From assembly GCF_016903815.1 (NCBI RefSeq), contig NZ_CP069973.1: 64,000 nt of DNA; one strand, 5' to 3'. The position numbers are program-made. Below are positions 44,101 through 50,100 of this stretch, one piece after another. Source of the DNA: Escherichia coli (GTDB lineage: Bacteria; Pseudomonadota; Gammaproteobacteria; Enterobacterales; Enterobacteriaceae). The first letter of the stretch is position 1, and each line of letters starts with the position of its first letter.

Positions 44101-47100
44101 TGGATACGGCAGAAGATTACTATGCAACATACTCACCATTATGGGGACAATATCCGGAAGCATTGCTGTTTGTAAACTGGCTCTATAATCATTCCTCTGT
44201 GCTGCATGAACGGGCAGAAATCATTAAATGCGCCGAAATGCTGATGCAGGAAGATGATTTCGAAATATGCGAAAGTATTTTAAGACAGCAGGAGAAGTTG
44301 CGTGAAAGAATTGATGAGACGCTTTCTGAAAAAATTGTACAGAAATGCAGAAATATGAATGGTGAATATGTCTGGCCCTGGATATTGCCGTTTTCAGCGG
44401 CAGGCATGAAACATACTGGCATACAGTATCAGTAGATATTGCATTAGTGTATCCTGCACACAAGTAATAATTTATCCACCAATAATAACACTGTTAATGT
44501 CCCCTTCCCCTGGTTGTCAGCCAGGGGTTATCTTCTGAATATTTCTTTTGAAAAGGATAACACAGTAAATTATTTTTATGAATTATCCCATGGACTCATT
44601 AACACCCTTTCATAATGCTTTATTGTCAAACACGTTATGGCTGACATCAAAAAAAACCGGATTTCCTCTGCCAGCGGGTAATCACCTTCCCGGTGTTTTC
44701 GGTTGGTCTGGTTACTCCTGTCTGGTTATTAGCAAGATAATTGCTATAAACAGTGGAAAACTCATCGTACATAATCTGGTGATGAACATTACGCTTATTT
44801 TCCCTTGACCGGAAGAATCAGAGGCTGTGGTTTCAGTCATACAGTCCATCTCCTTTAATCGGAGTTGGCTCTTTCCCTGGCCGTATACGGCGAACAGATT
44901 CTCGTATTACCAGTTTCCCATACAAAAGTAATGCACCAACAGTTGCATCAGGACGTACAAGTCTTTGTTGTAACATATGTACCGCTTCAGTACCCAGTTC
45001 ATCGCGAGGTACATGTACTGCCGTAAGTGGCACATCTTCTATTGCAGCCAGATTAAACCCATCAATACTCATTACGGACACATCTTGTGGCACTCGTATA
45101 TTACGTTTTTTTAAAGCGTTAATTATACCTGCAGCAATGAAGTCCCCACTTGCCAAAAAAGCAGTCGGTAGCATACTTTTCTCTGTCATATCCAGCCATG
45201 CTCCGACTTTTTCTTCGGCTTCTTTGGCGCTGAAACTATTAATAGTGAGTAAATCTCTGTCATCTTTAAAGTTCTGATTCTGTCTCTCCCATGCTTCTTT
45301 AATTCCGGCAAGTCGCAGTTCCATTGTGTATCGACGTAAACACATAATGTTCATTACTCTGCGATGCCCCATTTCAAACAGAAAGTGAGACGCAAAAGCA
45401 CCAATGTTTTTGTGATCTGGAGCAACTGTGGGAAGACGCATACGTCGATCATGGCAGTTAATCATTACGCACGGCTTAGAAAAATCTGCTGCAAGATCAT
45501 GTATATGAGGATCATCAATACCAAGCAATATTGCAGCCTGTGTTTCTGCCTCATTCATGCGCGCCAGGAATTTTGAAGGTGTACTATCGAACTCATCAAG
45601 GGCACAGTAACGCAACCGAACCTCATAATGCGATAATGCCTTGCTGATGCTTTGGATTACGCGGAAATAAAAAATGTCTGTTCGCTCATCAAAAGCCCGT
45701 TGAGGAGCAAAAATGACAAGGTTGTTTAACAACATACGGCCGGATGCCATTCCATCCATAACCCCAAGCTCTCTGGCACACGCCAATACTTTCTCGCGGG
45801 CACGATAACTGGTATTAGCTTTACCCGCTAAAACCCGTGACACGGTGCTGGATGAAAGGCCTGTTCGCATGGCAATATCAGCAATCTTTAGTTTTTTTTC
45901 CATATTGTGATCTATCTCTAATTTCAAAATGAAAAAATTCTCATGGGATGGAATAGCCTGACTGCAAGGACTTCTGACTATTTTTAGAATTTATATGAAC
46001 TACTTATGAAAAAACGTGCACAATACCAACTTTTTTTCATCGCCCCCCTCTTTTATTGTGAATGAGTAGTTCCGGTTTAAGTATTAAGCCGAAAGGTAAA
46101 GTGGGATGTGGCAACCCCGAGCTGCGTTGTCGCTCGATCATTTATTACATCCGGTGGGGTGATTATGAGTCAGGATATAAATAATAATATAGCTGTCAGC
46201 AAACACCGTCGAATAATAAGACAACTACGGTGGTGGATGTTAATCCTTTTTCTAATGGGTGTCACTGTCAATTATATTACCAGAAACTCATTAGGTATTT
46301 TGGCACCAGAGTTAAAAGACAGCCTTGGAATTACAACTGAACAATACTCCTGGATTGTTGGTGGATTTCAGCTTGCATATACCCTTTTTCAGCCACTTTG
46401 TGGATGGCTAATTGATGTTATTGGGCTCAAGATTGGATTTATGATTTGTGCTTCATTATGGGGAATTGCTTGTCTTCTGCATGCAGGAGCAGGAAGCTGG
46501 ATACAGCTTGCGTTGCTTCGTTTTTTCATGGGAGGTGCTGAGGCTTCTGCGACACCTGCAAATGCAAAAATTATAGGTGAGTGGTTTCCAAAATCTGAAC
46601 GTCCTGTTGCTGCTGGCTGGGCGGGTGTCGGTTTTTCTATCGGTGCAATGCTTGCACCACCAATTATTTACTTTGCACATGCGTCATTTGGTTGGCAGGG
46701 TGCATTTATGTTTACAGGTGCACTTGCAATTCTTTGGGTTTTCCTTTGGTGGGCGTGTTATAACACACCAGAAGAGCACCCAAACTTAAGTAAAAATGAG
46801 CTCAACTTTATCCGACAGGATAACGAAGCTCCTCCGGTAAAAATGCCTTTTCTGACCGCGTTAAAAACAGTTAGTAAAAATAAACGCTTTTATGGAATCG
46901 CTATCCCTGCATTTATGGCAGAGCCAGCATGGGCTGTAATGAGCTTTTGGGTGCCATTATATCTTGCAAAAGCATATGGCATGGACCTTAAACAAATAGC
47001 TCTGTTTGCATGGTTACCATTTCTTTGCGCTGATTTAGGAAGTATTGCCAGCGGATATCTGACAAAACTCTATACCCGTCTGTTTGGGTTAAGCAGAGTA

Positions 47101-50100
47101 AATTCTGTTATTGCGTCCTCTGTAAGCGGAGCATTTCTAATGGTTTCGCTTGCTGTGATTGCTTTTATCGACAATCCATATATTGCTATTGTACTTATCT
47201 CCATTGGTGGTTTTGGTCATCAGATAATTTCCTGCATGTTAAGTGCCCTGGTCGTTGAATCTTTTGATAAGGGGCAGATGGCCACTGTTAATGGAATGCG
47301 TGGTTCAGCCGCATGGATTGCCAGCTTTTTGTTCTCACTGATTATTGGCGTTACTGCTGACAAAATAGGCTTTAACCCGCTATTTATCGCCATGGGATTT
47401 TTTGATCTTATTGGTGCTTTTTTTCTGGTTACTTTTATTGCAGAACGTCGCAAAAAACGCACCTGAGGGAGTATGTGGAGATGAAAACATTAAAAAACTG
47501 GAAACTACAAAATCAGTCAGCCCATCATATAGAGCTATTAGTTGATGGTCAGCATTCTCTTTGCCTGTATATACTCGAAGAAAATATGTTCCGGGTTCTA
47601 TTAAAACGGAAGGGGGTTTTGTCGCTGGACCGAACCTGGAGCATTGCTCCGGAAAAGGATGTCCCGTGGGAAGGGCGTCATCGCGAAGATATTAGCGGTT
47701 TTTCACTGCCGACCTGGAACATGGAGCAGAATGATGAATTACTGACAATCACGACCAGTTCATTACGCGTAATTATTCACAAGCCTTTATGGCTTGAATG
47801 GCATTATAAGGATAATGCTGGTCAGTGGCAGGAACTTGTTAATGATCGCCCTACCAGTGCTTATCTGATAAACGCTCATGGTGATGGTGTTGCACACTAT
47901 CAAAGTCGACGTAATGACGAGCGTTTTTATGGACTTGGTGATAAATCCGGGGATCTGCAACGCACAGGAAAACGCTATGAAATGCGGAACCTGGACGCAA
48001 TGGGATATAATGCAGTAAGTACAGACCCTCTTTATAAACATATTCCATTTACAATTACTCACCGTAGCGATATTAGCTTTGGATTATTTTATGATAACCT
48101 CAGCAATAGTTGGCTGGATTTAGGTAATGAAATAGATAATTATCATACAACTTACCGCCGTTGGCAGGCTGAGGCGGGAGATATTGATTATTATCTTTTC
48201 ACTGGCAGATGTGTACTTGATATCACCAAAGCCTTTGTTCGTTTGACGGGGAAAACACTCTTCGGTCCAAAATGGAGTCTTGGGTACAGCGGTTCCACGA
48301 TGCACTATACAGATGCACCGGATGCTCAGAATCAATTGATGCAGTTTATTCGTCTTTGTAAGGAACATGCTATTCCATGTGATTCTTTCCAGCTATCTTC
48401 TGGTTATACTTCTATTAATGGTAAACGCTACGTATTCAACTGGAATTACGACAAAGTTCCACACCCTAAAATGATGAGTCAGGAGTTTCATAATGCAGGG
48501 ATACACCTGGCCGCTAATATAAAACCATGTTTATTGCAGGATCATCCTCGCTATAACGAAGTAGCAGAACAAGAGCTCTTTATTCGTGACTCTGAATACA
48601 ACGTCCCGGAACGCTCCAGCTTCTGGGATGATGAGGGTTCTCATCTGGACTTTACGAACCCACAAACAGTCGCATGGTGGCAGGAAGGTGTAACCACACA
48701 ACTACTTGAAATGGGAATTGATTCCACCTGGAATGATAACAATGAGTTTGAAGTATGGGATGGGGAAGCGCGCTGTCATGGTTTTGGCAAAGAAATCGCC
48801 ATTAAACACATTCGGCCAGTAATGCCTCTTTTAATGTGCAGAGCATCTATGGAAGCACAGCAAAAATTTGCACCGAACAAACGACCATATTTGATTTCCC
48901 GCTCTGGATGCGCCGGATTGCAGCGTTATGTTCAGACATGGAGTGGGGACAACCGAACTAACTGGGATACCCTTCGATACAACACCCGCATGGGGCTGGG
49001 AATGAGCCTCTCAGGATTGTATAACATTGGTCATGATGTCGGTGGTTTTTCTGGTGATAAGCCTGATCCAGAATTATTTGTTCGTTGGGTTCAGAACGGT
49101 GTTATGCACCCCCGATTTACGATCCACTCGTGGAATGATGATCATACTGTCAATGAACCATGGATGTATCCGGAAGTAACACCCGCGATTCGTAGTGCAA
49201 TTGAGTTACGTTATCGTCTTATGCCTTATTTATATACATTATTGTGGCAGGCACATGCCGATGATGAGCCAATATTACGTCCAACCTTCCTTGATCATGA
49301 GCACGATGTTCAGACATTTGAAGAATGTGATGATTTTATGCTGGGACGCGATATTCTGGTTGCAAGTGTCGTGGAAGCAGGGCAACGACAACGACGAGTA
49401 TGGTTACCCGACAACAAAACAGGATGGTACGACTTTTACAATGGCGAATGGTTCTGTGGTGGTCAATGGATAACAATCGACGCGCCACTGGAAAAACTAC
49501 CATTATTAGTACGTGCAGGTGCAGGTATTCCTCTTAGTGAACGTATAACATACGTGAGTGAAGCGGAAGATAATCATCGTAAATTGAAATTATTCCCAAT
49601 TAAAGGAACGGGTAAATCCACCGGACTTCTGTTTGAAGATGATGGCGAAACTTGGGGATATACTGAAGGTAATGCTCTGTGGCTTGAATGGGAGCTGGAC
49701 TGCACAGCCACTACAATTGAGTTAAGAATAAACACTCATGGAGATTATCGCCCTGCATGGGAAACATTGAAAGTGATAATTCCTCAGGGAGAAAGTCGTC
49801 AACTACTGATTAACGGCATTGAGGCTTATGAATGGAATATGAACCTATCCTGTAATGATTAATTTATTGTAGAGGGTAAATCATGGCCAAATAAAGGCAC
49901 TGTAAGAGTAAAACTTATAGTGCCTTTATATACAAGCCAGATTATAACGCCATGCAATGAAACGCCCCCATGCATACGTAGATTAACTATCTCTTACCAT
50001 TTTACATATCCGAAAGAATATGTTTTAACAGAAAGGTAAAACATGAGCGATAATAAAAAAGAGCACTTCCACAATGTAATAATAAGATGGGTTATTATTT

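Follow-up and report, generated by a model that had tools for sequence, protein, structure and literature searches.

The uid (gus) operon of Escherichia coli, uidR-uidA-uidB-uidC, encodes a repressor, a glucuronide carrier and a cytoplasmic glucuronidase, and the product of the latter enters the UxaC/UxuAB pathway. Here, we describe a 64,000-nt stretch of E. coli DNA (NCBI RefSeq assembly GCF_016903815.1, contig NZ_CP069973.1; hereafter referred to as the window), in which an islet carries a regulator-transporter-hydrolase module that we propose to follow the same logic. The uid operon acts on a beta linkage and consists of a GH2 enzyme, a GPH-family carrier and a TetR-type repressor, whereas the islet encodes a glycoside hydrolase of family 31 (GH31) with predicted alpha specificity, a major facilitator superfamily (MFS) transporter of the anion:cation symporter (ACS) family and a LacI-type repressor. 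The core yicJ-yicI pair likewise couples a transporter to a cytoplasmic GH31 retaining alpha-glycosidase, with the four-domain fold and the catalytic Asp pair in common. YihQ is also a GH31 enzyme and acts on an alpha-glycoside with an anionic C6, but its similarity to the islet enzyme is distant (E = 1.5e-31), and the yih cluster differs in having a GPH transporter (YihO) and sulfoglycolysis, not the Uxu pathway, downstream. The hexuronate regulon of ExuT, ExuR and UxuR is related to the module by paralogy of the transporters and by the uxaC, uxuB, uxuA and uxuR genes and TGGTNNACCA palindromes (which we take to be UxuR/ExuR boxes) that accompany the orthologous loci of Erwinia, Pantoea, Aeromonas, Vibrio, Pasteurellaceae and alphaproteobacteria. 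However, the E. coli module has a private LacI-type repressor instead of UxuR and no such box, and ExuT carries free hexuronates, whereas for its islet paralogue we predict a glycoside as the cargo. Finally, the GH67/GH115 alpha-glucuronidases (AguA) release (4-O-methyl-)glucuronate from alpha-linked aldouronates by an inverting mechanism; the reaction that we predict is alike, but the folds are unrelated, there is no sequence relationship, and the islet enzyme is a GH31 protein by every test.

Our analysis indicates that the module is probably a self-contained, horizontally acquired unit for the catabolism of an acidic alpha-glycoside, from which D-glucuronate is delivered. Specifically, the LacI-family repressor would act on TGAAAANNTTTTCA operators located between the LacI and MFS genes (45904-46164), with the glycoside or its product as the presumed inducer, and the ExuT-paralogous anion:H+ symporter would bring in a glycoside bearing a carboxylate. 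The cytoplasmic GH31 enzyme would then split the alpha-glycosidic bond with retention, D419 serving as the nucleophile and D490 as the acid/base, and the freed D-glucuronate would enter the core UxaC-UxuB-UxuA pathway. A first-pass annotation of the window had proposed three open reading frames (ORFs) of these families, and an ORF scan, Pfam and RefSeq all supported them. The ORFs are thus real, but the sizes first given to them (364, 452 and 795 aa) are those of the longest ORFs, and homology-supported starts give 356 aa for the repressor (44833..45903, − strand; ATG at 45903, the RefSeq start, with the open frame reaching back to a TTG at 45927), 433 aa for the transporter (46165..47466, + strand; ATG at 46165) and 793 aa for the GH31 enzyme (47481..49862, + strand; ATG at 47481), for which release of D-glucuronate is predicted. 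The GH31 gene starts 14 nt after the stop codon of the transporter gene, from which we infer an MFS-GH31 operon divergent from the LacI gene; the regulator-carrier-hydrolase layout and the 14-nt gap together suggest that the transported molecule is the substrate of the enzyme.

The transporter gave the first sign of a carboxylate on that substrate, since it is ExuT-like: it aligned with E. coli ExuT over its full length (414 of 433 residues) at 43% identity. Its Pfam match was MFS_1 (PF07690, 197 bits), and its best NCBIfam match, TIGR00893, reached 266 bits (4e-79), below the 395 cut-off. We found it to be 77% identical to an Erwinia orthologue whose gene is divergent from uxuA-uxaC-uxuR, and by this comparison it is a paralogue of ExuT, not its orthologue; E. 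coli already has ExuT. The first-pass annotation had likened the transporter to yicJ in family, which did not hold: YicJ is a GPH/MFS_2 protein (PF13347) and the islet protein an unrelated, ExuT-like ACS protein, with a BLASTP E-value of 0.65 between them and no PF13347 match (the GPH signature) in the latter. The islet also differs from yicJ-yicI in having a LacI repressor of its own.

Next, we compared 85 orthologous loci, comprising 80 from a scan of one genome per species (55-86% GH31 identity) and 5 from exact look-ups, the window included. Neighboring ORFs were clustered, the clusters were identified by Pfam and NCBIfam, and the counts were taken from tblastn. In 83 of the 85 loci an anion-type transporter lies beside the GH31 gene, either an ExuT-like MFS protein (n = 59) or the DctM subunit of a tripartite ATP-independent periplasmic (TRAP) transporter (n = 24). 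A LacI gene is found beside the MFS-GH31 pair in 48 loci, none of which has uronate genes nearby, whereas 31 of the 37 loci without LacI carry uxaC, uxuA or uxuB. Three architectures were distinguished. Type A (LacI< MFS> GH31>; 48 loci) occurs in Enterobacteriaceae, Yersinia, Serratia, Rahnella, Pectobacterium, Dickeya and Pseudomonas; type B (uxuR< uxaC< (uxuB<) uxuA< MFS> GH31>) in Erwinia, Pantoea, Aeromonas and one Orbaceae species; and type C (a uxuR-like gene, often a GH2 beta-glucuronidase-like gene, then dctP, dctQ, dctM, GH31, uxuB, uxaC and uxuA) in Vibrio, Marinomonas, Pasteurellaceae and several alphaproteobacteria. The dehydrogenase encoded in these loci is the fructuronate reductase UxuB (740 bits; cut-off, 603), and the Erwinia GntR-family regulator scored above the UxuR equivalog cut-off (454 versus 442). 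The TGGTNNACCA palindrome was present upstream of the transporter-GH31 operon in 23 of the 32 non-LacI loci examined, usually inside AAATTGGTnnACCAATTT, against a chance expectation of ~0.005 per region. Long ORFs beside the GH31 gene in two high-GC alphaproteobacterial loci had no Pfam match and were set aside as ORF-calling artefacts.

The closest solved relatives of the TRAP binding protein from these loci are 4N15, 4N91 and 4MHF, all of which are D-glucuronate binders, and STM3169, a related binder of free glucuronate, has a Kd of 0.17 uM (PMC7660916). Taken together, the type of carrier, the alternative use of TRAP transporters, the embedding in Uxu operons and the UxuR-type boxes point to a carboxylated glycoside yielding D-glucuronate, and we regard an anionic, glucuronate-yielding substrate as quite likely. 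The inference can be transferred between types because the type B proteins are as close to those of E. coli (GH31, 73-77% identity; MFS, 77%) as are other type A, i.e., LacI-type, proteins (68-74%), and all three architectures seem to serve a single orthologous function that is controlled by either of two regulators.

These contexts bear on two other explanations. The first-pass annotation had viewed the module as a functional parallel of yicJ-yicI for a neutral alpha-glucoside or alpha-xyloside (an alpha-linked gluco- or xylo-oligosaccharide), a view that draws on GH31 membership and fold, on the best NCBIfam likenesses of the enzyme (MalA alpha-glucosidase and alpha-xylosidase, both far under their cut-offs) and on the alpha-glucosidase label given to the protein in public sources. 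A neutral substrate fits poorly, however, with an ExuT-like, non-GPH carrier, with anion-type transporters in nearly all loci, with the 31 loci that lie within glucuronate operons, with the TRAP contexts and upstream UxuR/ExuR-type boxes, and with the enzyme itself, which falls short of the equivalog cut-offs and lacks the beta3 Asp of glucosidases and xylosidases described below; we consider it improbable. A transporter serving as a second importer of free hexuronates, with the GH31 gene as an unlinked or decaying passenger, would agree with the ExuT paralogy and with the high affinity of TRAP relatives for free glucuronate. Yet transporter and GH31 genes have stayed adjacent in both gamma- and alphaproteobacteria even though the transporters are of two unrelated types, no variation is seen in the catalytic residues, the orthologues are full length at 55-86% identity, the two E. 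coli genes are 14 nt apart, and ExuT is already at hand, all of which makes this explanation very improbable.

Further analysis of the GH31 enzyme revealed the Pfam domains of the family, namely the N-terminal PF13802 (128 bits), the catalytic PF01055 (301 bits), the C-terminal PF21365 (82 bits) and DUF5110 (PF17137), and no signal peptide. An AF2 model of the protein (pLDDT 89, pTM 0.92) superimposed in Foldseek on GH31 structures with TM scores of 0.82-0.84 at 25-26% identity, which, at the level of a model, confirms the GH31 fold. The nearest solved structures were Flavobacterium johnsoniae FjDex31A (E = 4e-82, TM 0.84) and endoplasmic reticulum (ER) glucosidase II (E ~1e-79, TM 0.83), and Foldseek returned no structural relative closer than this type. 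As first proposed, the enzyme is clearly distinct from YicI in sequence (25% identity over 545 aa). The catalytic pair, whose loss would have counted against the first-pass annotation, is in place: the nucleophile D419 (motif WNDNNE; codon 48735..48737, + strand) aligned with the Asp mutated in 6JR8 (FjDex31A) and with the nucleophile Asp of glucosidase II, YicI and YihQ, the acid/base D490 (motif WSGDN; codon 48948..48950, + strand) aligned with the WxGD Asp of glucosidase II, FjDex31A, YicI and YihQ, and both are invariant in 81 orthologues. The translation was checked at both codons.

The enzyme departs from every aligned characterized relative in three active-site motifs. In GH31 alpha-glucosidases, the beta3 Asp and the acidic residue two positions on bind O4/O6 of the −1 glucose, and shifting YicI toward a glucosidase reportedly required adding that second Asp. 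In the islet enzyme, this D-I-E/D motif is replaced by a loop of S306-S307-G308-Y309-T310-S311 (codons 48396..48413, + strand; translation checked), such that S306-S307-G308 stands where glucosidase II has D-I-E, FjDex31A D-I-G and YicI D-C-F (FDCFW, with the beta3 Asp kept), and both post-beta3 acidic positions of alpha-glucosidases are Ser and Gly. The SSGYTS loop is 96-100% conserved in the 81 orthologues, with S306-S307-G308 at the beta3 position in all of them. Similarly, the post-nucleophile motif is DNNE instead of the DM(N/G)E of the aligned characterized relatives, and their R-x-H is T-I-H here. FjDex31A and glucosidase II are the best matches in sequence and fold and share the aligned catalytic Asp residues, but they keep D-I-(G/E), DM(N/G)E and RxH and act on neutral alpha-glucans or glucosides. 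The NCBIfam scores fell below the cut-offs for MalA (314 versus 800), alpha-xylosidase (233 versus 606) and sulfoquinovosidase (139 versus 553), so that both specificity marks of GH31 alpha-glucosidases and alpha-xylosidases, the beta3 Asp and an equivalog score, are absent. The stretch after beta3, SSGYTSINGKRYVFNW in the islet enzyme, resembles its YihQ counterpart (SG..TS.GKR...NW), in which we place the sulfonate-binding Arg. Of the Arg-Trp-Tyr triad of sulfoquinovosidases, which we take to be R301, W304 and Y508 of YihQ and to bind the sulfonate, the Arg alone is kept, as the conserved R316, and the positions of W304 and Y508 are both Phe. We also rejected an identity with the diagnostic alpha-glucosidase of Cronobacter, given that gluA/gluB are reported to be much shorter GH13-type genes.

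Which of the two sugars is the glucuronate (GlcA) is a separate matter. In the version that we prefer, and which we offer as a leading guess, GlcA occupies the −1 subsite and the enzyme would be an alpha-D-glucuronidase. In its favor, both acidic residues that hold O4/O6 are lost and replaced by a hydroxyl-rich loop with a conserved Arg; carriers of the TRAP and ExuT types probably take small ligands; and links to uronates occur in other branches of the clade that shares these motifs (UxaC in locus L091, GH88 in locus L094). Candidate natural substrates would be aldouronates (GlcA-alpha-1,2-xylose), alpha-glucuronosyl-glycerol from glucuronosyl-diacylglycerol lipids, and the GlcA-alpha-1,2-inositol head groups of glycosylinositol phosphorylceramides (GIPCs). 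Alternatively, in the main rival reading, GlcA may lie in the +1 subsite, i.e., the cell would import an X-alpha-(1->n)-GlcA disaccharide from which the GH31 enzyme removes a neutral X and frees glucuronate, X being GlcNAc or GlcN (heparosan, heparan, plant GIPC head groups), Xyl (matriglycan) or Glc. The evidence from the transporter and the Uxu contexts applies equally to this arrangement, and every one of the closest solved structures is a gluco-configured alpha-glucosidase or transglucosylase. Distantly related loci that carry a PIG-L deacetylase and UxaC (L091) or a GH88 enzyme (L094) point to HexNAc-uronate glycans. In addition, a GH2 beta-glucuronidase-like gene accompanies the GH31 gene in 13 loci, a further likeness to uid, and such a pair would degrade alternating alpha/beta oligomers. 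On the other hand, the canonical O4/O6 Asp/Glu pair of a −1 subsite for Glc, GlcNAc or Xyl is absent; TRAP binding proteins and ExuT-type carriers usually accept ligands no larger than a modified monosaccharide, which makes a disaccharide or anything larger a stretch; and free saturated X-alpha-GlcA disaccharides are not known to be abundant. On balance, we judge GlcA at +1 to be unlikely, though well short of negligible.

A GH2 protein of 600 aa was observed beside the TRAP-GH31-uxuB-uxaC operon of marine or symbiotic alphaproteobacteria and of one metagenome-assembled genome labeled Cedecea (L058, L069-L071, L073, L074, L076, L078, L079, L083 and L084). It is nearest to beta-glucuronidase, under the equivalog cut-off (238 versus 544), and its position suggests a combined alpha/beta glucuronide or a substrate of alternating linkages.

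The SSGY / WNDNNE / PRFxIHSW signature is common to a large GH31 clade that extends to ~34% identity (P0121-P0247, L091-L094), includes some apparently eukaryotic members and has no solved structure. The genomic contexts of its distant members are heterogeneous, with ABC sugar transporters, PIG-L deacetylases, in some operons next to a GDE_C/MGH1-like hydrolase, GH88 (an unsaturated glucuronyl hydrolase, in L094) and UxaC (together with PIG-L in L091); as a guide to the −1 sugar they gave no decision.

Several points weigh against a glucuronate-delivering alpha-glucuronidase. The case is built from guilt by association and motif reasoning. The LacI-type loci, that of E. coli among them, have no uronate genes nearby, so that they are tied to glucuronate through their orthology with loci embedded in Uxu genes. 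Clade members with ABC sugar transporters and no uronate gene in view likewise lack the beta3 Asp and carry the WNDNNE / PRFxIHSW motifs, and features common to the larger clade do not single out its glucuronate-linked members. Relatives of the TRAP binding proteins bind free glucuronate, and the transporter in those loci might therefore carry the monosaccharide. YihQ seems to retain the beta3 Asp and yet takes an anionic C6, although the alignment there is ambiguous by one residue. Finally, a GH2 gene beside the GH31 gene would be expected just as well for a sugar-alpha-GlcA-beta-sugar substrate.

Alpha-D-glucuronidase activity has so far been assigned to GH67, GH115 and GH4, and we know of no record of it for GH31. 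A full-text literature search found neither a GH31 alpha-glucuronidase nor a study of this module, with an earlier in silico mention still possible, and neither the literature nor the names in public sources revealed a characterized operon under another name, in agreement with the first-pass annotation. The enzyme thus appears to belong to a group without a characterized member. That it represents a founding alpha-D-glucuronidase group of family 31, which together with an ExuT-like carrier forms a private glucuronate route, is a possibility that we put forward about as tentatively as the −1 assignment itself. Enterobacter asburiae JDR-1 reportedly imports methylglucuronoxylose and splits it to xylose, hexuronate and methanol by genes that were not identified (Bi, Rice and Preston, 2009). 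The module was found in an E. asburiae genome (L012) and could be the system behind this fermentation, a connection that we mention as a lead only.

If the proposal is true, GH31 would gain a new activity, and a large clade with an unusual −1 subsite signature and no solved structure would gain a function. The known bacterial route to glucuronate from conjugates has so far been beta-glucuronidase, and a transporter-glycosidase pair able to tap the alpha-linked form would open a second way in, one that varies between strains. E. coli B, CFT073 and ST131, together with many plant-, marine- and animal-associated proteobacteria, would then have a private glucuronate route, with xylan-derived aldouronates and glucuronosyl-glycerolipid or GIPC head groups as its sources. 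Glucuronate has been described as a gut nutrient that gives enteric pathogens a colonization advantage (PMC10990124). The module is found in major extraintestinal lineages (ST131 EC958, CFT073) and in laboratory E. coli B, and the gene is already present in BL21-type strains.

Regarding its regulation, the LacI-family protein has the Pfam domains of a LacI/GalR repressor, with a helix-turn-helix domain (PF00356; 33.6 bits, cut-off 27), PF13377 (Peripla_BP_3; 90 bits) and Peripla_BP_1, and no NCBIfam equivalog at cut-off. We searched for operators by footprinting 47 orthologous LacI-MFS intergenic regions, with Markov-shuffled sequences as controls. The palindrome TGAAAANNTTTTCA occurred in 41 of the 47 regions, compared with 4.0 +/- 1.8 in the shuffled controls, and lay at two fixed offsets from the LacI start, 26 nt (29 loci) and ~103 nt (15 loci). 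It resembles the consensus of LacI-family operators, as known from sites of the Cra/FruR type, and we predict it to be the operator of the LacI protein. The intergenic region of the window, which had been singled out for such a search, contains two predicted sites 77 bp apart, O1 (TGAAAAAATTCTCA, 45930..45943; 1 mismatch to TGAAAANNTTTTCA) and a degenerate O2 (TGAAAAAACGTGCA, 46007..46020; 3 mismatches), the latter overlapping an inverted repeat at 46006-46040. Directly upstream of the LacI start codon, at 45906..45921, there is a CRP-like half-site beginning with TGTGATCT, of which the left half alone fits the CRP consensus; the 8-mers TGTGATCT and TTGTGATC recur in 24 to 25 of the 47 regions, and the TGTGATCT element is a weak hint of CRP input. 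A search of the window for the UxuR/ExuR-type box (TGGTNNACCA) found none, which is consistent with control by LacI, and a generic promoter/terminator scan did not rise above the shuffled expectation.

The view of the module as horizontally acquired, with a divergent LacI gene, was borne out by its location, composition and distribution. The islet begins next to tRNA-Sec (selC; 41403..41497, + strand; ARAGORN and RefSeq annotation), its integration site, with a P4-type tyrosine integrase gene (41797..42981, + strand; Pfam Arm-DNA-bind_3, Phage_int_M and Phage_integrase) at its left end. Core yicI (37400-39718) and yicJ (39728-41167) lie across selC from the islet, as first noted. The right end is eroded and consists of IS1 and a truncated sugar-transporter gene (50460..51301; RefSeq annotation of identical DNA), followed by core yicL. 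The IS1 copy, which has a programmed frameshift, borders directly on 90 nt annotated as a sugar transporter minus its N-terminus, probably a remnant of the K-12 gene next after selC. The GC content of the islet is 0.41-0.46 (41500-50000), compared with 0.47-0.54 in the yicI/yicJ and yicL/nlpA flanks; it drops from ~0.50 to ~0.43 at the integrase and returns to ~0.5 at the IS1/truncated-gene end. Accordingly, tRNA insertion, an adjacent integrase, deviant composition and a patchy distribution are all features of a genomic island seen here, but a direct repeat derived from selC was not found: a search for attachment (att) repeats derived from the selC 3′ end gave only short chance repeats, possibly because the right end is eroded.

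The 5-kb LacI-MFS-GH31 module was found in 337 of 5,426 complete E. coli genomes, including EC958 (ST131), CFT073 and an E. coli B derivative, with at least 99% identity in 336 of them. On identical DNA, RefSeq uses generic names (LacI family regulator, MFS transporter, GH31 protein), and public sources call the transporter hexuronate-transporter-like and the GH31 protein an alpha-glucosidase. The closest relatives of the proteins (83-86% identity; L010, L022 and L049) are from high-GC Kluyvera, Citrobacter and Kosakonia, as opposed to the 42-43% GC of the islet, and in these genera the trio occupies a fixed chromosomal site in the order PFL-HAD-Gig2 | LacI-MFS-GH31 | abcF-ykuD.

In the interval between the integrase and LacI genes (43392-44808), the islet also encodes a TPR-repeat protein of 347 aa and a hypothetical protein of 76 aa, to neither of which a function could be assigned and for which PADLOC returned no defence hit. 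Just 3′ of the GH31 gene, at 50043-50144, there is an AT-rich (GC 0.35) 33-codon ORF annotated as the small membrane protein YkgR. Outside the islet, the interval between core yicH and yicI (30162-37105) holds an accessory cluster that encodes a BglG-family regulator, fructose-type IIA/IIB/IIC components of a phosphotransferase system, two class II ketose-bisphosphate aldolases, a ROK kinase and an isomerase of the D-lyxose/D-mannose type; we take it to be the 'frz' operon of extraintestinal pathogenic E. coli. Downstream of yicS, the region 53962-64000 contains a remnant type III secretion cluster (ETT2-related) with a SycD/LcrH chaperone, a YopB/SseC-like translocon protein and an IpaD/SipD-like tip protein, along with EilA, a regulator of the HilA family, and the first part of Air/EaeX, a giant inverse autotransporter. 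At the opposite end of the window, in the lipopolysaccharide core (waa) cluster, positions 1-469 contain a frameshifted pseudogene of a family-8 glycosyltransferase.

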